Virus record (IMG/VR): IMGVR_UViG_3300032213_001560
Reading direction: 5' to 3' (one strand)
DNA: 43,757 nt
DNA from: a virus
Part shown: in pieces, positions 5,444 to 43,757 of the stretch
How the letters are laid out: the number at the start of each line of letters is the position of its first letter
Position numbering within the stretch: the stretch's first letter is position 1
The notes under the pieces: generated by a model
The model's database searches: none
Seen by the model: the letters and a program-made list of their open reading frames with translations, nothing else
What the model was told of the DNA's origin: nothing
Translations under genes and position numbers: made by a program

Positions 5444-5983
5444 ATGAGCAGGTACTTAGAGCTTTTAGAGCTAATAGACAAATACAAGCCGCAATCTCTT
5501 GTCGAGATCGGCGTGTGGAATGGCGCCAATGCTATCCGCATGATTAATAGGGCAAAGCAGCATCATGCAGATGTAACCTATACAGGTTATGATCTGTTTG
5601 AAGAAGCCAGCGCCGATACAGACTCCAAAGAGTTTAACGTTAAATCCCATAACCATATGAATGCAGTCGCGGCTTATATCCGTTCTGAAACGGGTGTGAC
5701 TCCTGTACTTGTTAAGGGTGATACTAATGTAACGTTGCCGACTAAGACTATTGCCGACTTTGTGTTTCTGGATGGTGGGCATAGCATTGAAACTATTACC
5801 AATGATTACAGCAAGGTGGGCTTGAGCAAAGTTGTTGTGCTGGATGATTACTACACCAATGGCCCAAATACAGAAAAATACGGATGTAACAAGGTAGTCG
5901 CCAATCTTAAAAACATAACCATCATGCCCACCAAAGATCCTGTTAAGGGCGGTGGGTTTACTCAGCTAGTGGTGGTGGCATGA
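5444..5983 (+). CDS. class I SAM-dependent methyltransferase (sugar O-methyltransferase-like, 179 aa)
   Basis: SLVEIGVWNGANAIRMI (SAM-binding motif region) and DFVFLDGGHS are typical of TylF/Methyltransf_24-like enzymes. Start moved to ATG 5444 (GTGGAG 5 nt upstream), in frame with track start 5408. Confidence 0.7.
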   Translation: MSRYLELLELIDKYKPQSLVEIGVWNGANAIRMINRAKQHHADVTYTGYDLFEEASADTDSKEFNVKSHNHMNAVAAYIRSETGVTPVLVKGDTNVTLPTKTIADFVFLDGGHSIETITNDYSKVGLSKVVVLDDYYTNGPNTEKYGCNKVVANLKNITIMPTKDPVKGGGFTQLVVVA

Positions 5984-6228
5984 TTATATCAATCCTTGCA
6001 GTTTTTCTTGGTTTGTTTATTGGGTTGCCTTGCGGGATATGGATTAAAGGCGTAGTAACTAAAATTTTATCTGATGGTTATTTTAATTTTTCTCCTGAAG
6101 AACGCAAAAAATTAATACAAGAACGTAAAGCAAACGTTTTATCAAATGTTTTGTTAATAAAAGCAATAGCTAGTGGCGGTGTGTTTTTTGTTGGGTTTAA
6201 ACTTTATCATATGTTGGTTCAGCAATGA
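5980..6228 (+). CDS. small two-TM membrane protein (82 aa)
   Basis: ATGA junctions at both ends. Hydrophobic spans IISILAVFLGLFIGLPCGIWI and LLIKAIASGGVFFVGFKLY. Confidence 0.7.
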   Translation: MIISILAVFLGLFIGLPCGIWIKGVVTKILSDGYFNFSPEERKKLIQERKANVLSNVLLIKAIASGGVFFVGFKLYHMLVQQ

Positions 6229-6635
6229 AAACCATCTGCGTGTCTGGCGGTTTTGATCCTATCCACATTGGCCATGTACGCATGATAGAAAAAGCAGCCG
6301 ACCTTGGCAACGTGGTTGTAATCCTTAACACCGATGAATGGCTTTTGCGTAAGAAAGGGTTCTTCGTAATGCCGTGGGAGCAGCGTAGGGAAATATTGCT
6401 GGCATTGCGCAGCGTGCATAATGTTATTATTGCGCGTGACGATGACGATACCGTATGCGAAACGCTCAAGTACCTAAAGCCGGATTACTTTGCTAATGGC
6501 GGCGATAGAACTACTAAGAATACACCAGAAAAGAAACTTTGTAAAGAATTAGGCATCACAATGCTTTGGGGTATGGGCGGCAAAAAGATTGCAAGCAGTA
6601 GTGAATTGGTTAAGAGGGCAAATGGCAAGATTTAA
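6225..6635 (+). CDS. HIGH-motif nucleotidyltransferase (cytidylyl/adenylyltransferase; RfaE/HldE domain II or TagD-like)
   Basis: The N-terminal ICVSGGFDPIHIGHVRMIE is the (T/H)xGH nucleotidyltransferase signature. ANGGDRT...SSSELV matches sugar-phosphate nucleotidyltransferases of the heptose/glycerol-phosphate type. Confidence 0.75.
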   Translation: MKTICVSGGFDPIHIGHVRMIEKAADLGNVVVILNTDEWLLRKKGFFVMPWEQRREILLALRSVHNVIIARDDDDTVCETLKYLKPDYFANGGDRTTKNTPEKKLCKELGITMLWGMGGKKIASSSELVKRANGKI

Positions 6636-6909
6636 AAAACGCGCATGGGGCTGGTATCTAGTTCTGCTTAATTTTCGGCAGTTCAAGGTAAAGCTGCTGC
6701 GTTTTAAACTTGGCGGTCAGTTATCAGTTCAATACCACAATCATAGAAGCGAGTTATGGCTATTCCTAACTGGAGTGCATAAGGGTAACTTTTGGCTGAT
6801 TAACAAGGGCGAGGTGCATACCTATTACGCTAATGGAGAGCGCCCGTTGGTGCTAGAAATCCAGTACGGCGAAAAGTGTAATGAATCTGACATTGTGAGG
6901 ATTCCATGA
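6622..6909 (+). CDS. cupin-domain protein, type II phosphomannose isomerase / GMP C-terminal domain-like (95 aa)
   Basis: RAWGWY..., KVKLLRFKLGGQLSVQYHNHRSELWLFLTG and EVHTY...LVLEIQYGEKCNESDIVRI follow the PMI/GMP cupin pattern (RPWG, KVK, LSLQxHxHRxEHW, IEVQxGxxxxEDDIxR). Start taken at ATG 6622. Confidence 0.7.
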   Translation: MARFKKRAWGWYLVLLNFRQFKVKLLRFKLGGQLSVQYHNHRSELWLFLTGVHKGNFWLINKGEVHTYYANGERPLVLEIQYGEKCNESDIVRIP

Positions 6910-8813: not shown

Positions 8814-9787
8814 AAACCGCAATTGTAACAGGCGTGTGTGGTCAGGACGGTGCGTACTTAGCAAAGCACCTACTATCCCAAGGCTATAACGTTATTGGCT
8901 GGGCAAGACGCAATGCCTCACTTGCGGGGCTAAAATATCTTGGCGTTGAGTATCTTGTAAAGGTTGTTGATATTGATATTTGTGATCCGCACCACGTTGC
9001 AGACGAGATATATAAAACGCAGCCACAGGAATTATATAACCTTGCTGCACAATCGCATGTAGGGCTGTCGTTCAACAATGCAATGCAAACGTGTCAGGTA
9101 AACTACGGCGGCTACCTGAACATACTGCTTGCTGCTCGTAAGTTTGTACCAGCGTGCAAAATATATCAAGCCGGAACAAGCGAGATGTTTGGTTATTCAG
9201 CGGAAGGAATATGCAATGAACAAACTCCGTTTTCCCCTATGTCCCCGTATGCAATTTCGAAAGTCGCCGCGCATTGGGCAGGGGTCAATGCTCGATATGA
9301 AGCAGAACAATTTGTATGCAACGGTATTTTGTTCAATCACGAAAGTCCACTTAGGGGCAACGATTTTGTAACAAAGAAGATAACCAACTTTGTAAAGAAT
9401 TTTAGCGGTACAGAATGTTTAAAACTAGGCAATCTGGATGCCTCGCGTGATTGGGGCCATGCGCAGGACTATGTGATTGCCATGCACAAAATGCTGCAAG
9501 CACCTATGCCAGATGATTATGTTATTGCAACAGGTCACTCAACAACGGTTCGTAACTTTGTGCGTATGGCGTTTGAGGTTATTGGCAAAGGCATCATGTT
9601 TGAAGGCGAAGGCGTTAATGAATGTGGGTACGTCAACGGCGTGAAAGTAGTTGAAGTATCGCCAGAGTTCTACCGCCCTAATGATCTGAAATACTTAAGA
9701 GGTAGCGCTAAAAAAGCGCAGCAACGCCTTGATTGGACACCAACAATTACGATTGAACAGCTTGTAGGAGAAATGGTTACATCATGA
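8810..9787 (+). CDS. gmd: GDP-mannose 4,6-dehydratase
   Basis: TGVCGQDGAYLAKHLLSQGY (Rossmann GxxGxxG), YNLAAQSHVGLSF, YQAGTSEMFG, SPYAISKVAAHW (YxxxK) and CNGILFNHESPLRGNDFVTKKIT are collinear with bacterial GMD. ATG 8810 forms an ATGA junction. Confidence 0.9.
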   Translation: MKTAIVTGVCGQDGAYLAKHLLSQGYNVIGWARRNASLAGLKYLGVEYLVKVVDIDICDPHHVADEIYKTQPQELYNLAAQSHVGLSFNNAMQTCQVNYGGYLNILLAARKFVPACKIYQAGTSEMFGYSAEGICNEQTPFSPMSPYAISKVAAHWAGVNARYEAEQFVCNGILFNHESPLRGNDFVTKKITNFVKNFSGTECLKLGNLDASRDWGHAQDYVIAMHKMLQAPMPDDYVIATGHSTTVRNFVRMAFEVIGKGIMFEGEGVNECGYVNGVKVVEVSPEFYRPNDLKYLRGSAKKAQQRLDWTPTITIEQLVGEMVTS

Positions 9788-11439
9788 AAACAGCAGTTTG
9801 CACAACTTTTCCGTTAGATTATTACAATGTCTGCGCACGCGAAATGATTGTCACATTTGATAAGCATTGGCCTAAAGATGTGGATTTATTCATTGCATTG
9901 GACAAGGTAAGCAAAGAAGAATTGGCATTTTTACATCAGGATATTGGTGATATTCTCAAATCTGGGCGCGAGTTCTTTATATCAAATCAATGGACGGATG
10001 AAAAAGAGGCGTTTTATAAGCGCAATCAGGACTCACCTGATGTTAGCTACCGTTTCCATGTATGCAAGTTTGCGCACAAGGTATTTGCGCTAAAGGGCGT
10101 TGCTGACCATTGCCGCCAATTAGATTATACGGACATTATTTGGTTGGATGCTGATGTTATTACGAAGGCTGATTATGTGCCGGAAGATATGGGGGCAAAT
10201 GTTACAAAATTAGAAATATATGACGCCGCAACATTACAACGCATTGACGCTCCACATAGCGAATGCTCATTTATTCAATTTAGCCTTGAAGGTAAGGGCG
10301 GAGAAATTATTGACAAAATGCACAATTGCTATGTCACTGATGAAGTGCTTATGCTTGCTGGCTGGACAGATTGCGATGTGTTCGACCATGTAGCAAAAAA
10401 TTATTGCGTTTTGAATTTGTCAGAAGGCATAAAGGGATGGCATGTGTTCCCAGAATCAAAACTAGGCAAATACATGGAGCACCGCAAAGGGAACCGAAAG
10501 CATGTGGCTAAAACACAAAATATCATGCAGCCAAACGAAATACAGCGCCCTATTGTAGCGGATACCATGACTATTAAAACCATGAACTGCATTCCGCATG
10601 AACAGATCATTGCAAATATTAAAGAAAACCTTAAACAAATTAAAAAATGGGTAGAATACGTTAAACCGCACGATGAAACCGTGGTTATTTGCAGCGCGGG
10701 CGAAAGCTTGTCCTATTGTGATGTTAAGAAATGGGCGGATAAAGGTACAAAGATTGTTACGGTAAAACATGCCATTGATCGCTTGAAAGCATGGGGAATT
10801 AAGCCTTGGGCGTGTGTATTGCTAGACCCAAGACAGCATGTTGAGAAATTTATTAACACACCAGACAAGGATGTTATCTATTTTGTTGCTTCTATGGTTG
10901 ATCCGTCTGTTGTTAAGACGTTGTTAGATAACAATTGTATTGTTATTGGCTATCACGCAATGGTTGGCGCAGGCGAAGAAAAAATACTAGACAAAGGCAC
11001 TATGCTTGTTTCTGGCGGCAGCGCTACAGCCACTCGCTGCCTTGGCGTTCTGCATGAGTGCCTTGGGTTTAGCGACATCCATTGTTATGGTTACGACCTT
11101 TGCTACTTCACCAAGCCTGACATGAATAAGCGCGATGATGCTGGAAATCTCAAGTATATGGAAATTACTTTGGCTGCGAAAACATGGGGCGGAAAGCTAC
11201 AGCAGCGCACGTTTTGGACAGAAGGGCAGTTCTTGGCACAGGCGAAAGAACTGCATGATTTGTATAAAACCGAACAAGGGTTTAATATGGTACTTCATGG
11301 GAACGGTATTCCATCGTGGCAAAGAGCTTGCTTTGAGCAGTATAAGGCATGGGTAGATCAGTTTAATTCTAAAATAGACCAAATCAAACAAAACAGCGTA
11401 ACGCTACAAGAGTGGGAAAATGGAATTAGAGCAAAATGA
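9784..11439 (+). CDS. two-domain transferase: N-terminal DxD nucleotide-sugar transferase-like domain fused to a DUF115/MptE-like (Maf-type) domain, 551 aa
   Basis: The N-terminal half has DIIWLDADVITKAD (DxD). The C-terminal half has VVICSAGESLSY...VTVKHAIDRLKAWGIKPWACVLLDP...SGGSATATRCLGVLHECLGFSDIHCYGYDL, which matches the DUF115 pattern as I recall it. Confidence 0.6.
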   Translation: MKTAVCTTFPLDYYNVCAREMIVTFDKHWPKDVDLFIALDKVSKEELAFLHQDIGDILKSGREFFISNQWTDEKEAFYKRNQDSPDVSYRFHVCKFAHKVFALKGVADHCRQLDYTDIIWLDADVITKADYVPEDMGANVTKLEIYDAATLQRIDAPHSECSFIQFSLEGKGGEIIDKMHNCYVTDEVLMLAGWTDCDVFDHVAKNYCVLNLSEGIKGWHVFPESKLGKYMEHRKGNRKHVAKTQNIMQPNEIQRPIVADTMTIKTMNCIPHEQIIANIKENLKQIKKWVEYVKPHDETVVICSAGESLSYCDVKKWADKGTKIVTVKHAIDRLKAWGIKPWACVLLDPRQHVEKFINTPDKDVIYFVASMVDPSVVKTLLDNNCIVIGYHAMVGAGEEKILDKGTMLVSGGSATATRCLGVLHECLGFSDIHCYGYDLCYFTKPDMNKRDDAGNLKYMEITLAAKTWGGKLQQRTFWTEGQFLAQAKELHDLYKTEQGFNMVLHGNGIPSWQRACFEQYKAWVDQFNSKIDQIKQNSVTLQEWENGIRAK

Positions 11440-13684
11440 GTCATATCCTGAAATTGAACAAATGGATGCTGAAGAAGCGCCACCACCGCTAGAACCAAAA
11501 GCTCCAGAAGATGTAAACCTTGCCGAAGAACTTTCGCAAGATGCTGAAGGAGCTAAGGAATTAACAAAGATTGCCAATGAGTGCGTCAAAGCATTTGAAG
11601 ATGACCTTGAATCTCGTAGCGATTGGGAGGAAATGCACACCACCTACCGCGAGATTTACTACCAGCGCGATATGCCGGAAACCCCGCCTTGGACGGGTTC
11701 TAGCGAAGAAAGCCTGCCAATTCTTTCTGAAGCTGTAGGCCAGTTCCAAAGCCGTTCTTATAAAGCGTTTTTCCCAAATCGTTATTTTATTGATTGCATC
11801 CCTGTAGGAAAAAGTTCCACAAATGCTCGCGAACGTGCCGAACGCATCTCCCGCCATATGTCCTATCAACTTGGTGTGCTTGACCGGACGTATAAAGCAA
11901 ATAAAAACCAGATGTTTATGGCCGCAGCCCTTGATGGCAGTGATTTTACCAAAACTTATTGGTCGCCTGTACGCAGACAAGTGGTTATTGAGCGTGTGCG
12001 TGCGGAAGATTTGGTCGTTCCTTACGGCGTTGGGCCACGCCGTTTAGAAGAAATTGAACGTAAAACGCAAATTAAATGGTGCAGCGTCAACGAAACACGC
12101 ATTTTAAAAGCCGCTGGATGGTATATTGACGAAGGTACGCCATATACGCAGCTTGGCGACCAAACATCAATGCAGCAAGCCGCAGATGAGGCTGAAGGGG
12201 TACAAAAAAGCAGTACTTACGACCAATCAGCAGGTCAATGCTGCATCCTTGAACAGCATACCTTGCTGGATTTAGATGATGATGGCATTGCAGAACCTTA
12301 TATTGTGTGGATTGACCGTCAAAGCAAGAAAATCCTGCGCATCCAGATTCGCTATGAAGTAGATAAAACAGGTTTACCGCTGAATAATAAAGAACCTGTT
12401 GAATATTTTACGCATTATCAGTTTTTACCTAACCCAAATGGGTTTTATGGCCTTGGTTTTGGCTTCTTGCTGGCAAAAATTAACCTTGCTGTTAATAAAC
12501 TTTCCCGCATGTTTATTGATGCCAACGAGCTTTCGGTTGTTGGAAATCTTACTTACCTGATTAGCGACCAGCTTGGGTTACCGGGTGATAGTTTTGAAAT
12601 GTCGCTTGGCAAAGGCATCAAAATCCCGCGCTCTGTGCAAGATATTAACGCGCACTTTAAGCAATTAAACTTTGCACCGCCTAGCCAGCAGACAATGCAG
12701 ATGATTGAGCAGTTGCGTACTGCTGCCTCCCGACTTAGTTCGGCAACTGACATTCTTTCTGGGCAGCCTGACAAGGTTTATCAGCCTGAAGCCATGCTTG
12801 CCATGATTGAACAGGGTTTGCAGCTTTTTAGCTCTGTTCAGGAGTTTTTGGGCGTTGCAATGGAAGATGAATTGCAAAAAGTCTACCGCCTAAATGCAAA
12901 ATACCTGCAAGAAGATGCTAACTTTGTGTTTGGCGATGACCAAATTACAGTGACACGCGAAGATTACAAAGACGACTTCCGCGTTATGCCAATTTTTGAT
13001 CCTAAGTATTCTACCCGTTCGCAGAAGCTTGCAAAAGCTAAAGCCGAGTATGAATTTGCTATTGGCAATCCACTAATGCAGCAAGATCAAGAATCTATCT
13101 ATCTTGTTTCTAAAAACGTGCTTGAATCGTTGGATGCAGAGGATATTGACGCAAAACTTAAAAAACCCGCGCCTCCTCCTGCACCAGCACGCATTGATGA
13201 CCAGAATCTTGAGAACGCATACTTCCTCATGCCGCCTGATAAAAGGCCATTGTTTGATGTATACCCAGATCAAGACCATTTACAGCACATTAGGAAAGTT
13301 GATGAGTTTATTGCGTTTATTGACGCCTCATCACCGCTTGAAGTGCCTAATTTACCAGGTGGCGACCCCGGTATTTCACAGTTAATTGCCACATTAAGCG
13401 GCGAACAAAAGAAAGAACTTGTTGCCAATCTGCTGCGTCATAGGTCGCTGCATATGGCGTTTATGTATGGTCAACTTAATGGGGTTATGGATGAGCAAGG
13501 ACAACCAATCACACCTAACAACGGTGGAGCAGGATCTGCTGGAGGGGTGGCAACGACACCGAGTGACAACCCTGATTTGGCGCAAATTATGTCAGGATTA
13601 CAATCCCTACTCGGCGCTTCTAGTATGCAAGCCGGAGGAACTGGGCAGGTATCAGGGGCAGGCGGAAATGATGGAAGTGCTTAA
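11420..13684 (+). CDS. portal protein (754 aa) with acidic N-terminal and Gly-rich C-terminal extensions
   Basis: Largest head-module ORF in the late operon, between terL and the scaffold/capsid genes. Assigned by size, position and general portal-like composition. No diagnostic motif verified. Confidence 0.7.
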   Translation: MELEQNESYPEIEQMDAEEAPPPLEPKAPEDVNLAEELSQDAEGAKELTKIANECVKAFEDDLESRSDWEEMHTTYREIYYQRDMPETPPWTGSSEESLPILSEAVGQFQSRSYKAFFPNRYFIDCIPVGKSSTNARERAERISRHMSYQLGVLDRTYKANKNQMFMAAALDGSDFTKTYWSPVRRQVVIERVRAEDLVVPYGVGPRRLEEIERKTQIKWCSVNETRILKAAGWYIDEGTPYTQLGDQTSMQQAADEAEGVQKSSTYDQSAGQCCILEQHTLLDLDDDGIAEPYIVWIDRQSKKILRIQIRYEVDKTGLPLNNKEPVEYFTHYQFLPNPNGFYGLGFGFLLAKINLAVNKLSRMFIDANELSVVGNLTYLISDQLGLPGDSFEMSLGKGIKIPRSVQDINAHFKQLNFAPPSQQTMQMIEQLRTAASRLSSATDILSGQPDKVYQPEAMLAMIEQGLQLFSSVQEFLGVAMEDELQKVYRLNAKYLQEDANFVFGDDQITVTREDYKDDFRVMPIFDPKYSTRSQKLAKAKAEYEFAIGNPLMQQDQESIYLVSKNVLESLDAEDIDAKLKKPAPPPAPARIDDQNLENAYFLMPPDKRPLFDVYPDQDHLQHIRKVDEFIAFIDASSPLEVPNLPGGDPGISQLIATLSGEQKKELVANLLRHRSLHMAFMYGQLNGVMDEQGQPITPNNGGAGSAGGVATTPSDNPDLAQIMSGLQSLLGASSMQAGGTGQVSGAGGNDGSA

Positions 13685-31052: not shown

Positions 31053-31463
31053 ATGGCATTAGACCCACTAACAGCAGGTTTTGAACTTGGCGGTAAGATA
31101 TTAGACAAGCTATTCCCCAATCCAGAGGATAGAGCAGCCGCACAGATCAAGCTGGTTGAGTTGCAACAGTCAGGCGACTTGGCGCAGATTACAGTCAACC
31201 AAGAAGAAGCCAAGCACGAGAATCTATTTGTAAGCGGATGGAGGCCATTTATAGGCTGGGTTTGTGGTTTTGCGTTTGCCTACCACTTCATTGCATTACC
31301 CCTGCTGGAAACCGTAGCACAAGCCGCTGGCTACAAGGTCGAGCCACCAGTATTTGACATGAACCAACTTATGACCGTATTGATGGGTATGCTTGGTTTG
31401 GGAAGCTTACGCACTGTTGAGAAAGTCCAAGACATGAAAACGAAGCTACCATGGCAAAAATAA
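31053..31463 (+). CDS. holin, 3-TM GTA-type (DUF3154-like), 136 aa
   Basis: KLFPNPEDRAAAQIKLVELQQSGDL..VNQEEAKHENLFVSGWRPFIGWVCGFAFAYHF matches, from memory, the conserved N-terminal and WRPxIGW block of the holin-of-3TMs family described for gene transfer agents. Confidence 0.55.
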   Translation: MALDPLTAGFELGGKILDKLFPNPEDRAAAQIKLVELQQSGDLAQITVNQEEAKHENLFVSGWRPFIGWVCGFAFAYHFIALPLLETVAQAAGYKVEPPVFDMNQLMTVLMGMLGLGSLRTVEKVQDMKTKLPWQK

Positions 31464-31549
31464 TCCTCATTTCCCTACTACTATCTGGCTGCACCGTATG
31501 CGCTAAGGGAGAGTGTCCGGTGTTTCCTACGAGTGCACCTCGGCAATGA
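31451..31549 (+). CDS. small lipoprotein (32 aa), outer-membrane spanin-like candidate
   Basis: Manual translation: MAKIILISLLLSGCTVCAKGECPVFPTSAPRQ, with lipobox LSGC. It overlaps the holin 3' end by 13 nt and converges on the TrpRS-like gene, with 23 nt of antisense overlap. Confidence 0.45.
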   Translation: MAKIILISLLLSGCTVCAKGECPVFPTSAPRQ

Positions 31550-32273
31550 TTAGATCGGCAAGTTCGGTTTTGAAATCCTTAAACCTTGTATGCTTTTCTT
31601 TGCCCCCAACTGCCTTATAGATAGTGCGTAAGTTTACCATTTCCGGCGTATCATCATCTATCGACATAGCTGTTTTTGCTACCATTATCTTGCGCCTGAT
31701 TGTTTCTGCATTATCAATAATATTAATCCTGCTCATATCATCCGGTTCAGATTTGCTCATTTTCTTTGTTCCGTCCGTAAGCGACATAATGCGGGGATAT
31801 TCGCTTACAACAGCTTCCGGCTTAGGGAAAGACTTCTCTGGAAGCTTATCATGTAAATCTCTGATAAACTCTATGTGTTGTACTTGGTCGTTACCTACGG
31901 GGATATGTGTGCCTTGGAGATAGAATATGTCGGCAGCCATCAGCACAGGATAGGTAAGCAATGAAGCTACCTGCGCCTCTTTCTCCGATTTTTCCTTGTA
32001 CTGCGTCATCCGCGAAAGATGACCTATCTTGGCATATTGCAATAAATTCGCATACAAGATTAAATGTTCTTTAGGGAAATGGCTTTGGATGTCAACATCT
32101 AACCCAATATCAATAAGGATTTTGGCAGTCTTCATAACTTCTTCGCGGCTGTGAATTCCGTGGAGGTCAGCAACAAATACCATGCAACCAAGTTTTCTTG
32201 CTTGCTTGATCGCGCCAAGGTAATTTCCTAAATGAATATTTCCTGTTGGCCTTATGCCTGTGACGTATTTCAT
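31527..32273 (-). CDS. trpS: tryptophanyl-tRNA synthetase-like class I aaRS, C-terminally truncated (248 aa)
   Basis: IRPTGNIHLGNYLGA (HIGH-equivalent), SRMTQYKEKS, LLTYPVLMAADI, IPVGNDQVQHIEFIRDL and KMSKS are collinear with bacterial TrpRS. It ends at ...FKTELADLIIAEVHS, short of the usual about 330 aa. Confidence 0.85.
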   Translation of the reverse strand: MKYVTGIRPTGNIHLGNYLGAIKQARKLGCMVFVADLHGIHSREEVMKTAKILIDIGLDVDIQSHFPKEHLILYANLLQYAKIGHLSRMTQYKEKSEKEAQVASLLTYPVLMAADIFYLQGTHIPVGNDQVQHIEFIRDLHDKLPEKSFPKPEAVVSEYPRIMSLTDGTKKMSKSEPDDMSRINIIDNAETIRRKIMVAKTAMSIDDDTPEMVNLRTIYKAVGGKEKHTRFKDFKTELADLIIAEVHS

Positions 32274-32521
32274 GTTTCCAAATGCGGCCGAGAGGCAATA
32301 GATTCCTTATTTGGGGTAAATACGCCACCGGCTCCTGCTGGTTTATTTGAACCATAAACCCCAGTGCCACCACCGCCTCCATAACTAATTGCTGCTACAC
32401 CGCCACCCCCGCAAGTTCCATATGTAAATAACGGAAGGCCATTGGCTGCTAAAACTTTATTTGCTTCTGTCAAAGCTTCGTGGGCTGTAGCAAAATGATT
32501 TTTAGTAAGAACTACTTTCAT
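32270..32521 (-). CDS. glycine-rich small protein (83 aa), translationally coupled to the TrpRS-like gene
   Basis: ORF track: MKVVLTKNHFATAHEALTEANKVLAANGLPLFTYGTCGGGGVAAISYGGGGGTGVYGSNKPAGAGGVF... ATGA junction with trpS. GGAGG lies 7 nt upstream of its ATG. Confidence 0.65.
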   Translation of the reverse strand: MKVVLTKNHFATAHEALTEANKVLAANGLPLFTYGTCGGGGVAAISYGGGGGTGVYGSNKPAGAGGVFTPNKESIASRPHLET

Positions 32522-32584: not shown

Positions 32585-32743
32585 TTATCCATTGGTTTTT
32601 CTTTCAACGCCACAGCCGACCAGATGTTGTAGGGTGCTTAAAAATGGTGAAACTTGCTTGCATTTTGTGCAACGCCAACCAATGACTCGATTACGGTCAT
32701 CATATATTTCATCCACTGATTTATTGATACTGTTTTCTTTCAT
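32585..32743 (-). CDS. small Cys/His protein (52 aa), zinc-binding candidate
   Basis: Manual translation: MKENSINKSVDEIYDDRNRVIGWRCTKCKQVSPFLSTLQHLVGCGVERKTNG (CxxC ... HxxxC). Confidence 0.45.
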   Translation of the reverse strand: MKENSINKSVDEIYDDRNRVIGWRCTKCKQVSPFLSTLQHLVGCGVERKTNG

Positions 32744-36552: not shown

Positions 36553-37569
36553 TCATAATGGTAGCCCCTCTTGCGCCGTTCTTTTGTCTTGAAGTGGTGC
36601 ATAATCATTATTCAGTTCGCACCCTATCCATTTCCTGCCTAGCCGTTGCGATACTTCTCCAGTTGTCCCGCTGCCGAAAAATGGGTCGAACACAATGCCG
36701 CCTGTTGGAGCGCCAGCTAATATACATGGCTCAATTAATTTTTCAGGGAAAGTAGCAAAATGAGCGCCTACATATGGCATTGTTGCAACCTCCCACACTG
36801 TTCGCTTGTTCCGCATGTTTACTATAGATTTTGGGGACTGTTGGCCTTCTCCGTGTTTACCGTTCGGGTGCCGTATGGTAATACCATTTTTTGTTTCGGT
36901 AATTTCCCTGCCGCGTAGTTTTGCCTCTTTGCTGTCGTATCCATAGAGCCTATCGCGTACTATACCGGGCGGCCTATTGTCTCCGCTTTCAAGGGCATAT
37001 ATGGCCTGCTCTTTTATTGCATCGCAGTCGTAATAATAATCCTTATTTTTAGTTAACAGGAATATATACTCATGCGTTTTTGTCGGCCTATCAGTCACGC
37101 TTTCTGGCATCGGGTTAGGCTTGTACCAGATAATATCACTGCGAAGATACCACCCATTTGCTTGCAAGGCAAAAGCTACTCTCCACGGAATACCGATTAG
37201 GTCTTTCTCTTTAAGTCCATTAAGTTTATTGCCGCGCCGCGCACATGTGTCTGGTAAATCCTGTTTGTTATTGCTAACCGTCTGCTTTGCTAGTGCTTGC
37301 CCTAATCCCGGACGATAGTTATAATACGAATCCCCCAAGTTTAACCAGAGAGTACCATCATCTTGCAATAGATCACGCACCAGACCAAATACCTCAACCA
37401 TATTGGCAACGTATGCTTCTGGCGACTCCTCAAGCCCTAACTGCCCTTCATGCCCATAGTCACGCAATCCCCAATACGGAGGCGATGTAACGCATGTCTG
37501 TACCTTTACGCCATCAGCAATTAACTGGCGCATGGTTTCACGGCAATCCCCGAAGAAGCATTTATTCAT
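36553..37569 (-). CDS. beta-class DNA methyltransferase (N4-cytosine or N6-adenine), 338 aa
   Basis: Motif IV TSPPYWGLRDY lies near the N-terminus and motif I VFDPFFGSGTTGEV near the C-terminus (order IV then I). Start taken at ATG 37569 (MNKCFFGDCRETM...), with AGGAG/TAAGG upstream. The track start 37659 adds an implausible hydrophobic extension. Confidence 0.85.
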   Translation of the reverse strand: MNKCFFGDCRETMRQLIADGVKVQTCVTSPPYWGLRDYGHEGQLGLEESPEAYVANMVEVFGLVRDLLQDDGTLWLNLGDSYYNYRPGLGQALAKQTVSNNKQDLPDTCARRGNKLNGLKEKDLIGIPWRVAFALQANGWYLRSDIIWYKPNPMPESVTDRPTKTHEYIFLLTKNKDYYYDCDAIKEQAIYALESGDNRPPGIVRDRLYGYDSKEAKLRGREITETKNGITIRHPNGKHGEGQQSPKSIVNMRNKRTVWEVATMPYVGAHFATFPEKLIEPCILAGAPTGGIVFDPFFGSGTTGEVSQRLGRKWIGCELNNDYAPLQDKRTAQEGLPL

Positions 37570-37726
37570 TAACCTTAGCTCCTGGATCCCTCGTTCTGAC
37601 TTGCTCCAACTGTTTACGATAATTGTGCAGACGGTGCAGATCATCGCCAGCAGTACCAAACATTTCTATGTCTTGCTCCAAGGCGGCAATCCGAGTTTCG
37701 TAATAACTTGCTGTATCTGGTTCCAT
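37562..37726 (-). CDS. hypothetical small protein (54 aa)
   Basis: Manual translation: MEPDTASYYETRIAALEQDIEMFGTAGDDLHRLHNYRKQLEQVRTRDPGAKVNE. GAGGAG lies 5 nt upstream. Its stop overlaps the methyltransferase ATG (ATGAATAA). Confidence 0.55.
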   Translation of the reverse strand: MEPDTASYYETRIAALEQDIEMFGTAGDDLHRLHNYRKQLEQVRTRDPGAKVNE

Positions 37727-37779: not shown

Positions 37780-38394
37780 TTACTCTGGCAGATTCACTTG
37801 CTCTGTTTGTGCCTCTGCTATCCGTTTTGCTTCAAGCACATCTACATCGTCGGCAATCTTACGCATCTCAGCGCCAAATGCAGCAAGGTGCTTTTTCTTC
37901 TCTTTAGGAACCGCCTTTAACCAAGCGTCTAATGCAGCCCCGCCTTGTCCAGCAACGTCACGACATTCTTGTTTGAGTGCTTCAAGATCGGTGTCTATAG
38001 TCATTACCAGTGGCTTAACAGTGAAGGGCTTGCGATTGCTTTTAGATGTAGTCAAAGCCATCACGCGCTCGGCTGGTATATCGCTTAAATGGCTAATACG
38101 AATGCCACCCACTTCCATGCCAGCCCACTTAACTGTAGGGTCGCCATACAGCGTTAATGACTTACCAACATACGATTGTCCTTGACCGCCCCAACAATTC
38201 ACCAGAACACGGCACATTGATTTGCATGGCTTCCACGGTTTGCCGCCATCATTTTCATAGTTAATCAAAATTGGTTGCTCACCAGAAACTTTTGAAACTT
38301 TGGTAATTTTAATTGTGAGAGTTTTACCGCCACAAAAATCATCAAAATTCAATTGGTCTGACTTTGGTTGTATTACTGATGTCATATCGGTCAT
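37780..38394 (-). CDS. hypothetical protein downstream of the exonuclease (204 aa)
   Basis: ORF track. ATGA junction with the YqaJ-like gene. No motif recognised. Confidence 0.7.
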   Translation of the reverse strand: MTDMTSVIQPKSDQLNFDDFCGGKTLTIKITKVSKVSGEQPILINYENDGGKPWKPCKSMCRVLVNCWGGQGQSYVGKSLTLYGDPTVKWAGMEVGGIRISHLSDIPAERVMALTTSKSNRKPFTVKPLVMTIDTDLEALKQECRDVAGQGGAALDAWLKAVPKEKKKHLAAFGAEMRKIADDVDVLEAKRIAEAQTEQVNLPE

Positions 38395-39062
38395 ACGCTT
38401 ATCTCCCTATCAACTCGTTCTGTTGGTATCAAGCCAACGATTTTTTCACCATATTCAACAATAATCTTATCCAGCTTCTCATGGAAAATAGTTGCTGCTT
38501 TAATAATTGCAGCTTGCACTTTCTCATCTGGCAAGGCGCGGATAACCTTCATCGGCATACCACCGCAATAACTAATGTAGTCCAGCCATTCACGCTCGGA
38601 TACAAGCAATCCTGTCTGCACCTGAATAACATGCTCGTCAGGAATTAGACCAGTCATGATAACTTCCATCTGGAATTTCTGCTTGCGTGATTTGGCCTCA
38701 ATTGCTCCAACGTCACCGCATAACCCATCTGGCGAGTACCCTAGCGTAAATCCCCACTTGTCGTTTGTAATGAAGCCGCATGTCGTAACTGGCTCATAGT
38801 TTTCATCATATGTACCACGCGCATATGACTCATCATCGGAACCGCGCAACATATCGTCACCAATATAGGTAGGCTCAACATAATTGTTAATACGCTGTGC
38901 TGCCAATTCGTATAAATGCGCTTTCTCTTTTTCATTCTGCGCGTATTCCAGTTTCTTAGCGGTGATGATTAACTTCATTTCGGATGCCGTCAGCAATCCG
39001 CAACGCAAGGCCAACCACTCAGCCGAACCTTGGTAAACCTCGTTATGGTATGTGATGGTCAT
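38391..39062 (-). CDS. YqaJ-type (lambda Exo-like, PD-(D/E)XK) recombination exonuclease, 223 aa
   Basis: QGSAEWLALRCGLLTASEM, YSPDGL and GAIEAKSRK reproduce the YqaJ family signature (QxSxEWxxxRxGxxTAS, SPDG, ExK). Confidence 0.8.
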   Translation of the reverse strand: MTITYHNEVYQGSAEWLALRCGLLTASEMKLIITAKKLEYAQNEKEKAHLYELAAQRINNYVEPTYIGDDMLRGSDDESYARGTYDENYEPVTTCGFITNDKWGFTLGYSPDGLCGDVGAIEAKSRKQKFQMEVIMTGLIPDEHVIQVQTGLLVSEREWLDYISYCGGMPMKVIRALPDEKVQAAIIKAATIFHEKLDKIIVEYGEKIVGLIPTERVDREISV

Positions 39063-42519: not shown

Positions 42520-43692
42520 ATGGAAAAAACTTTCCCTATGCTGCAAATGGGTAATAAAACCCCTATTGCCAGCATTGAAAACCTCCGCAATCTGCTAGAC
42601 TTTCACGGCATTACTTGCCGTTATAATGTAATATCAAAGCAATACGAAATCATCATACCGGACGAGCAATTCAGCCAAGATAACGCAGATATTGCCAGCC
42701 TTGCTCGTGTTGCCTCTCGCATGGCTGAGGTTCAATTACCTACCGCGCATTATAAGGAATACATTAGCTATATAGGTGATGCAAACCAGTACAACCCCGT
42801 ATTGCAGTGGGTGACTTCTAAAAAGTGGGATGGTATAAACCGCATTGACGAGCTATGCGGCACTATCAAAGCTAAGAACGAAGAAGCTAAGAACATGTTT
42901 ATAAGGCGTTGGCTTATTACTGCTATGTACATGGCAATGCACGATGGCTATGACTCGCCGGGCTGTTTAGTGCTTCAAGGGCCGCAAGGCTTAGGCAAAA
43001 CGTGGTGGTTTAGAAAGCTATGTGACCAACCTAACCTTATCCGAACAGACGCTAACGTTGACCCGCGCAATCGTGACAGCGTTAGTCAAGTGATTAGGTA
43101 TTGGATTGTCGAACTAGGCGAAATCGGTTCAACCTTCAGGCGTTCAGACGTTGATGCGCTAAAAGCTTTTATAACATCATCCAGCGACATATTGCGCCGC
43201 CCGTATGCTACTACTGACCAACTTTACCCAAGGCGCACTGTATTGGCGGCAAGTGTGAATGAGGCTATCTATTTGCATGATCCTACAGGTAACAGGCGAT
43301 TTTTTACTGTTCAATGTACAGAAATTAACAGTTATCATAAGATTGATATGCAGCAATTATGGGCTGAGGTGCATAATTTAATTGAAAACTGTCAAGAAAC
43401 ACCGCATTTGACTAGCGAAGAAAAACGCCTTGTAGACGAAATAAATATGGAGCATATGCAAATTGACCCAATAGAAGAAATGATTTTATCGTTTTATAAT
43501 TGGGGTGATGCAATGGCATACGACTGGAAAACCTCCACAGTCATAGCGGCTGATATAGGTTTAAAGAACATCAGCCAAAAAGAAACAAGGAAAATAGCTG
43601 AAGTTGTCAGAAAATTAAACTCTAACGACTTTAGCAAAGAAAAACGCTCCAACGGACAGCTAAAGTTTTTCACCCCAGAGCCGCGCTCATAG
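42520..43692 (+). CDS. VirE-family P-loop protein (phage primase/helicase-associated NTPase), 390 aa from ATG 42520
   Basis: Walker A LVLQGPQGLGKTWWF, Walker B-like YWIVELGE, then RRPYATT...RRTVLAASVN...NRRF, the typical virulence-associated protein E layout. The track GTG start at 42427 lies inside the stem-loop. Confidence 0.75.
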   Translation: MEKTFPMLQMGNKTPIASIENLRNLLDFHGITCRYNVISKQYEIIIPDEQFSQDNADIASLARVASRMAEVQLPTAHYKEYISYIGDANQYNPVLQWVTSKKWDGINRIDELCGTIKAKNEEAKNMFIRRWLITAMYMAMHDGYDSPGCLVLQGPQGLGKTWWFRKLCDQPNLIRTDANVDPRNRDSVSQVIRYWIVELGEIGSTFRRSDVDALKAFITSSSDILRRPYATTDQLYPRRTVLAASVNEAIYLHDPTGNRRFFTVQCTEINSYHKIDMQQLWAEVHNLIENCQETPHLTSEEKRLVDEINMEHMQIDPIEEMILSFYNWGDAMAYDWKTSTVIAADIGLKNISQKETRKIAEVVRKLNSNDFSKEKRSNGQLKFFTPEPRS

Positions 43693-43757
43693 TTTCAGCC
43701 AGTAATCTAACGGTTTTACTCATAGTTTTTCCGCGCTCATACAGACCATAAGTTGCA
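43635..43757. repeat. Terminal direct repeat copy 2 (identical to 1..123)
   Basis: Exact 123-nt identity with the window start, read directly. Confidence 0.95.

Follow-up and report, generated by a model that had tools for sequence, protein, structure and literature searches.

A C-terminally shortened tryptophanyl-tRNA synthetase conserved among phages

Phages and giant viruses are known to carry aminoacyl-tRNA synthetases, and tryptophanyl-tRNA synthetase (TrpRS) is already among the smallest synthetases of class I. The virus record IMGVR_UViG_3300032213_001560 (43,757 nucleotides; "the window" below means this whole stretch) raises the question of whether a TrpRS that is smaller still can be a working enzyme, since an open reading frame (ORF) of 248 amino acids on its minus strand was originally predicted, from the sequence alone, to encode a truncated TrpRS that is either minimal but active or repurposed. 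We find that this ORF encodes a bacterial-type TrpRS homolog, with homology far beyond chance, and that it belongs to a phage-associated lineage whose members share the same truncation. We consider it probable that the protein is a functional compact TrpRS charging host tRNA-Trp, and that it perhaps reads the anticodon in a relaxed way.

The class I signatures on which the original prediction rested, namely HLGN, the segment GNDQVQHIEFIRD and a verbatim KMSKS, all translate as claimed and are present in their TrpRS form. The aspartate of the GxDQ box is indeed retained; however, this residue binds ribose, and the aspartate specific for tryptophan (Trp) is Asp115 in YPVLMAAD, which corresponds to Asp132 of the Bacillus stearothermophilus enzyme. 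The gene and its recognizable elements are as follows:

31527-32273, minus strand: the short TrpRS ORF, 248 amino acids, with an ATG start and a TAG stop at 31527-31529.
32223-32234, minus strand: HLGN, residues 14-17, the TrpRS version of the HIGH-type ATP-binding signature.
31929-31952, minus strand: YPVLMAAD, residues 108-115, with the Trp-pocket residues Tyr108, Met112 and Asp115 (B. stearothermophilus Tyr125, Met129 and Asp132, the last binding the indole NH).
31857-31895, minus strand: GNDQVQHIEFIRD, residues 127-139, the GxDQ box (here GNDQ, with Asp129 and Gln130) together with tRNA acceptor-end residues.
31749-31763, minus strand: the KMSKS loop, residues 171-175, in which Ser173 equals Escherichia coli Ser197, the site phosphorylated by the kinase HipT.
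31662-31682, minus strand: VAKTAMS, residues 198-204, a remodelled anticodon-recognition loop equivalent to E. coli Arg222-Asp228, with a deletion of 5-7 residues directly after it.
31530-31583, minus strand: the last helix, FKDFKTELADLIIAEVHS, residues 231-248, which contains Lys235 (E. coli Lys274), the reader of C35 O2.

Within GNDQVQHIEFIRD, Gln132 and Glu135 are the counterparts of E. coli Gln152 and Glu155, which read G73, while Arg138 and Asp139 are those of Arg158 and Asp159, which contact acceptor phosphates. The protein matches the Pfam family tRNA-synt_1b (PF00579) with an E-value of 1.7e-41 and 142.9 bits against a cut-off of 21.1, and the NCBIfam profile TIGR00233 (trpS) with 170.4 bits, the match spanning positions 6-254 of the 328 in the profile. 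Its closest relatives among solved structures are bacterial TrpRS, with residues 4-226 aligning to residues 5-252 of the B. stearothermophilus chain 1i6k at an E-value of 3.5e-36.

The short protein also folds confidently as a TrpRS in an AlphaFold2 model (pLDDT 93.3, pTM 0.85), which consists of a Rossmann core and, at the C-terminal end, a domain of three helices. When this model was compared with the PDB using Foldseek, the top 50 matches were all TrpRS or a TrpRS-derived design (TMq 0.73-0.88), and the best superposition was on a bacterial TrpRS, the Trp-adenylate (Trp-AMP) complex 1i6k, at a TMq of 0.88; in a viral structure library, matches were limited to distant TyrRS and TrpRS of giant viruses. 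The phage protein thus has the same fold as class Ic bacterial TrpRS (1I6K, 5V0I/8I1W/9LPC; TMq 0.80-0.88) at 31-38% identity, and it has in common with them the HIGH-type, GxDQ and KMSKS signatures, the Trp pocket, CP1, the readers of G73 and the acceptor, and the lysine that contacts C35. Unlike the phage protein, the bacterial enzymes have a C-terminal helix (E. coli 299-334), a complete helical domain, Asp226, Ser227 and untrimmed loops.

Relative to the 328-residue Bacillus TrpRS, the phage protein is 80 residues shorter, with the last ~48 residues gone and a further ~32 lost internally. The C-terminal truncation that was originally predicted is therefore borne out, although its size is ~48 residues rather than 50-70. 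The first insertion is likewise shortened as proposed, but the trimming is distributed over the whole length in seven small internal deletions: in a MAFFT alignment with B. stearothermophilus numbering, ~4 residues are missing near 30-34, seven after His43, ~4 near 72-76, one in CP1, ~4 near 157-167, five after the anticodon loop and eight before the last helix. The protein, which ends in ...FKTELADLIIAEVHS, stops at about E. coli residue 285, so that the missing C-terminal piece corresponds to E. coli ~286-334. In the E. coli enzyme the helical domain comprises residues 184-298, and the C-terminal helix (299-334) is assigned to the aminoacylation domain (PMC10201369). The lost piece thus comprises the end of the last helical-domain helix and also the C-terminal helix, which packs on the Rossmann domain, but not the anticodon-binding site; that site has been changed in another way, through loss of the aspartate that reads C35.

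A split gene or stop-codon read-through that supplies the missing C-terminus was rejected because of the short distance to the next gene:

31464-31526, no strand: a 63-bp spacer that separates the stop codons of the TrpRS gene and the convergent holin gene (31053-31463, plus strand).

Read-through of the TAG codon would add only seven residues before the next stop, so there is no hidden C-terminal extension.

The same short form recurs in related phages with the same end point. A search covering 5.8 billion proteins recovered the protein itself along with ~60 metagenomic homologs that are 50-83% identical to the phage protein and 245-276 amino acids long, many of them on contigs of 20-64 kb, while ordinary TrpRS of 320-340 amino acids appeared only at ~40-43% identity. 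All short members stop at one column of the MAFFT alignment, right after the FK.ELA.LII.E helix. When 1.84 billion cluster representatives (50% clustering) were searched exhaustively with a profile, ~7 short representatives (247-271 amino acids), scoring 265-385 bits, likewise stood apart from full-length TrpRS, which scored at most 252 bits. Two longer proteins, P0126 (789 amino acids) and P0128 (714 amino acids), carry a C-terminal TrpRS domain, score just under the short family and look like fusions. In IMG/VR we found three more divergent short phage clades (231-274 amino acids) that end at the same alignment column, and the genomes and contigs with short forms span about 10 to 105 kb. By our labels, the divergent clades are:

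L086 and L087 with P0064 and P0065, IMG/VR.
L088 with P0068 and P0069, IMG/VR.
L099-L105 with L115, 231-239 amino acids, IMG/VR.

Neighbor-joining support for a single origin of all the short clades is weak: all short forms came together in 35% of bootstrap replicates, and in a further 26% with the 312-residue L097 protein included. The grouping of clades A to C had 88% bootstrap support. The L097 protein is encoded at 5971-6909 of a 75-kb contig and is a viral TrpRS with a complete C-terminus and a Thr-Thr anticodon loop (ARTTAG) as in the short forms; grouped with the short clades in the neighbor-joining tree, it could be an intermediate form.

Purifying selection on the short gene is strong. 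When the window gene is compared with that of its closest relative, L003 (83% amino acid identity), the proportion of synonymous differences (pS) is saturated at 0.80, while that of nonsynonymous differences (pN) is 0.13, and the gene has a GC (guanine plus cytosine) content of 42% against 43.7% for the phage. The saturated pS with a low pN and the phage-like base composition therefore rule out both a pseudogene and a recent capture. These conservation data refute the idea that the ORF is a decaying, functionless fragment of a captured host trpS, even though no canonical TrpRS is as short and its score lies under the NCBIfam trpS cut-off: its end point is common to ~60 relatives and three further clades, its active site is invariant, and its predicted fold is confident. 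Full-length homologs in relatives would, according to the original prediction, have pointed to such decay; the close relatives instead all share the exact truncation.

We compared residues between 59 short members and 52 full-length TrpRS (57 short homologs entered the initial alignment), using as mapping reference an E. coli TrpRS sequence that agrees with all residue numbers named in PMC10201369 and PMC12135181; tRNA contacts and domain limits were taken from the apo and tRNA-bound E. coli structures described in these two papers. The ATP-binding and catalytic residues His14, Gly16, Asn17, Gly127, Asp129, Gln130 and KMSKS 171-175 are invariant in all 59 short members, as are the Trp-pocket residues His38, Tyr108, Met112 and Asp115 (B. 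stearothermophilus His43, Tyr125, Met129 and Asp132). The same invariance (59/59) extends to the G73 readers Gln132 and Glu135 and to the acceptor-backbone contacts Arg88, Arg138 and Asp139. Conservation of the E. coli equivalents of the two G73 readers, Gln152 and Glu155, is strict among bacterial TrpRS, whereas the eukaryotic and archaeal enzymes have other residues in their place (PMC12135181).

These acceptor-end residues bear on whether the protein acts outside translation, either by forming Trp-AMP and passing Trp to a non-tRNA acceptor or by heterodimerizing with the host TrpRS to modify or poison it. Truncated synthetase paralogs with new functions do exist, including a tRNA-modifying GluRS paralog and the TyrRS/TrpRS-related cyclodipeptide synthases (PMC9437257), and the CP1 dimer-interface region is retained in the short TrpRS. 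Invariant readers of G73 and the acceptor backbone, however, make sense only with a tRNA-Trp-like acceptor arm as substrate, an intact active site would be needless in a poison subunit, and the HIGH and KMSKS motifs, whose absence marks a cyclodipeptide synthase, are both present and invariant in the family. Moreover, no conserved partner gene was found across the related contigs compared, and the short-TrpRS family occurs in DNA of 42% to ~63% GC, a span of very different hosts that argues against tight co-adaptation with one host enzyme. We therefore regard non-translational use as highly improbable, and the strictly conserved tRNA acceptor-end readers count against the repurposed Trp-activating enzyme of the original prediction. 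Indolmycin-type resistance, which a change at B. stearothermophilus His43 confers, is not supported either, given that the equivalent histidine is invariant.

The window is a phage genome, as its genes for terminase large subunit, portal, major head protein, DNA-ejection protein, tail fiber, holin, a DNA polymerase exonuclease subunit and a helicase/primase indicate. Its ends (1-123 and 43635-43757) are identical over 123 bp, so the genome is complete, being circular or terminally redundant, at ~43.6 kb, and its description as a 43-kb phage is confirmed. Neither a tRNA gene nor a match in an Rfam search was found in the complete genome. The phage uses the standard code, with 90.7% coding sequence and 29 TGA, 28 TAA and 12 TAG stops, and coding density is no higher under code 4 or 15; a suppressor-tRNA or recoding explanation was thus rejected. 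Trp makes up 1.4% of the residues in 12 large ORFs, which is no enrichment in Trp codons. The same gene is also present, at a shifted offset, on an ENA contig of 43,689 bp.

Returning to the compact, active TrpRS that we favor, in line with the minimal but active enzyme of the original prediction, residue invariance, purifying selection and the confident fold together suggest how it would work. The enzyme would bind ATP and Trp and make Trp-AMP with canonical HLGN, GxDQ and KMSKS machinery, and it would dimerize via the retained CP1 region. Gln132 and Glu135, with the contacts Arg88, Arg138 and Asp139, would dock the acceptor arm of bacterial tRNA-Trp, while the anticodon would be touched by a reduced site in which Lys235 and Thr201 are kept and the C35-reading aspartate is lost. 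In the course of evolution the lineage would have lost several loops along with the C-terminal helix and the end of the helical domain, and have exchanged residues that are hydrophobic in full-length enzymes for Lys or Arg. Consistent with such an exchange, the short family has Lys/Arg or acidic residues at five positions that are hydrophobic in full-length TrpRS (E. coli Val29, Val174, Val217, Leu247 and position 94), which may reflect a re-surfacing of faces that the lost helices used to cover. From the end of a leftward operon that includes exonuclease and DNA methyltransferase genes, the gene would add TrpRS activity to the infected cell and keep tRNA-Trp charged when the host TrpRS is limiting or inactivated. 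The benefit to the phage would then lie in translation supply or in bypass of toxins that target TrpRS.

Several observations weigh against this reading. The TIGR00233 score of 170.4 bits falls slightly short of the equivalog cut-off of 176.75 bits, a shortfall explained by the missing C-terminus. In Bacillus TrpRS, catalysis needs an intact anticodon-binding domain whose motion is coupled with that of CP1, a coupling worth ~10^5-fold in rate (PMC5272822), and losing part of this mobile helical domain could be costly. At the anticodon site, E. coli Asp226, which accepts the N4 hydrogen of C35 (PMC12135181), is replaced by Ala, Ser, Thr or Gly in all 59 short members, compared to an Asp in 46 of the 52 full-length enzymes, and Ser227, which reads A36, has become Met in 43 of the 59 (Ala202 and Met203 in the phage protein). 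With the C35-reading aspartate gone and Ser227 mostly Met, normal anticodon discrimination is therefore doubtful. Two further changes affect Trp-pocket or N-terminal residues: E. coli Phe7 (B. stearothermophilus Phe5) is Val or Ile in the short family, as also in 5 of the 52 full-length enzymes, and Gln11 is Arg in 58 of the 59 short members. Finally, without tRNA genes, a conserved partner or Trp-codon enrichment, the genome gives no direct clue to why the phage needs the enzyme.

Family-specific changes near the active and G73 sites fall at positions 4, 8 and 131 of the phage protein, and E. coli Lys151 is replaced by Val in 35 of the 59 short members. This lysine aligns with Lys149 of Bacillus subtilis TrpRS; according to the title of a paper cited in PMC10201369, Lys149 and Glu153 switch tRNA-Trp aminoacylation.

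The altered anticodon site raises the possibility that specificity for the tRNA itself has been relaxed, such that the enzyme activates Trp, drops discrimination at C35 and A36, and relies on G73 and the acceptor arm. Its substrates would be tRNAs that the host TrpRS handles poorly, such as anticodon variants, suppressor-like tRNAs, or damaged or modified tRNA-Trp. In addition to the replacements of Asp226 and Ser227, the flanks of both anticodon-contacting segments carry deletions, and loss of the aspartate is common to all four short clades. Genes for tRNAs with other anticodons ending in A also adjoin the short TrpRS gene in some relatives: a tRNA-Tyr(GTA) lies within about 1 kb of it in L086 (7600-7685), L104 (5476-5557) and L105 (496-577), and a tRNA-Cys(GCA) about 4 kb from it in L087 (1742-1816). 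These anticodons share A36 with that of tRNA-Trp(CCA), which may be coincidence. Two of the four anticodon readers are nevertheless conserved, with Lys235 (E. coli Lys274) kept in 58 of the 59 short members and Thr201 (E. coli Thr225) being Thr or Ser in every one. A phage without tRNA genes and with the standard code offers no obvious special substrate, and mischarging would harm the phage too. We accordingly consider a relaxed or altered tRNA specificity doubtful.

In the related contigs the TrpRS gene lies among small ORFs, with neighbors that differ from contig to contig:

L003: a methyltransferase and a helix-turn-helix protein.
L004: DnaB, TrwC and terminase.
L005: a 1707-residue SNF2-type helicase.

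Only two genome records carry members of the family, and both are from Planctomycetota: the chromosome of Limnoglobus roseus, where the gene adjoins integrase and transposase genes, and a contig binned to a metagenome-assembled genome of Planctomycetales, where it adjoins YopX, a homing endonuclease and an ArdC-like anti-restriction gene. The GC content of these records is ~60%, far from the 43.7% of the phage. In L099, a 99-kb viral contig of the most divergent clade, a TrpRS of 234 amino acids lies 2 kb upstream of a 21-tRNA array (8919-12557) that includes a tRNA-Trp(CCA).

In the window, the TrpRS gene is the last of a leftward gene block and is convergent with the holin gene, which closes a rightward block. 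The leftward block also includes gene kinds that phages use against restriction and for recombination:

36553-37659, minus strand: an N6/N4 DNA methyltransferase.
38391-39062, minus strand: a RecE-like exonuclease.

Such surroundings bring to mind a counter-defense role, with the phage TrpRS serving as a spare or decoy against toxins that inactivate TrpRS. Accessory and counter-defense genes are often mobile and stand alone, and the TrpRS gene, which stands alone beside methyltransferase, exonuclease or ArdC-like anti-restriction genes, likewise moves between phage backbones that are unrelated. Candidate toxins are Ser/Thr kinases of the Hip family, since HipT and Caulobacter HipA2 halt translation by phosphorylating the KMSKS loop of TrpRS; HipT phosphorylates Ser197 in the KMSKS loop of E. 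coli TrpS, and overproduction of TrpS alone suppresses its toxicity (PMC6581861). Kinases of this family have been proposed as abortive-infection modules (PMC8262856). However, the target residue, Ser173 in the phage protein, is invariant, which makes kinase resistance not obvious, so the phage enzyme would work by supply or decoy rather than by resistance. No Hip system is known for the phage host, and no experiment in the literature searched ties Hip kinases to phage defense. Argued by analogy, and compatible with an active enzyme, a counter-defense role thus seems possible although unlikely.

The short phage TrpRS differs from known viral enzymes. The TrpRS of phages AP1 and HF2, which are TGA-recoded and carry a tRNA-Trp-UCA, were shown experimentally to charge tRNA with Trp (PMC12636597); their genes sit in "code change" operons beside suppressor tRNAs, whereas the present phage has no tRNA and a standard code. 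The TrpRS of huge phages (IMG/VR, 400-600 kb) and giant viruses are 320-380 amino acids long with a full C-terminus and belong to genomes rich in translation genes. Full-text literature searches returned no description of a conserved, C-terminally shortened TrpRS lineage, and what sets the present case apart from the known phage TrpRS is that it belongs to such a lineage and that its genome is not recoded and has no tRNA.

Other shortened class I cores have been reduced differently. GluQRS (YadB) lacks the whole anticodon-binding domain and cyclodipeptide synthases lack the ATP-binding signatures (PMC9437257), whereas the phage TrpRS keeps the signatures and most of the helical domain. The engineered TrpRS Urzyme (130 amino acids) and catalytic domain (204 amino acids) of the Carter laboratory activate Trp and acylate tRNA without the anticodon-binding domain (PMC5272822). 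These fragments are laboratory constructs with a ~10^5-fold loss in rate, in contrast with the phage TrpRS, which is natural and selected, retains CP1 along with most of the helical domain and, unlike the constructs, appears re-surfaced. A natural, selected form smaller by a quarter would reveal how much of TrpRS can be dispensed with in vivo and would give the study of synthetase evolution a natural counterpart to these constructs; it might also provide a compact scaffold for genetic-code engineering. The recurrence of a stand-alone synthetase in mid-sized, tRNA-less phages with the standard code may imply that Trp-tRNA charging is a pressure point of infection, which would fit with host toxins aimed at TrpRS. 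An extended form of this argument, in which the lineage (231-276 amino acids) is the smallest natural class I aminoacyl-tRNA synthetase, relaxed at the anticodon, driven by the acceptor arm, and acting as a stand-alone counter to blocks on tRNA-Trp charging such as those imposed by Hip-family kinases, strikes us as rather improbable as a whole.

A megablast of the 2-kb region against GenBank phages found no close relative. The phage-record matches from tblastn (at most 39% identity) were set aside, since most of them were full-length trpS from records that are unannotated, short or bacterial, and were probably host DNA filed as phage. Among them, a Ralstonia "phage" match was dismissed because it is a full-length TrpRS of 400 amino acids on an UNVERIFIED_ORG record, whose flanking large ORFs are without phage character.

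Two small ORFs lie close to the TrpRS gene on the minus strand. One (32270-32521) encodes a Gly-rich protein of 83 amino acids (...CGGGGVAAISYGGGGGTGVYG...) and overlaps the TrpRS start codon by four bases (ATGA), which suggests translational coupling of the two; it has no PHROG or family match and no counterpart upstream of the TrpRS gene in L003. The other (32585-32743), upstream in the same block, encodes 52 amino acids with two CxxC pairs (CTKCKQ...VGCG) and may be a small zinc-ribbon protein.

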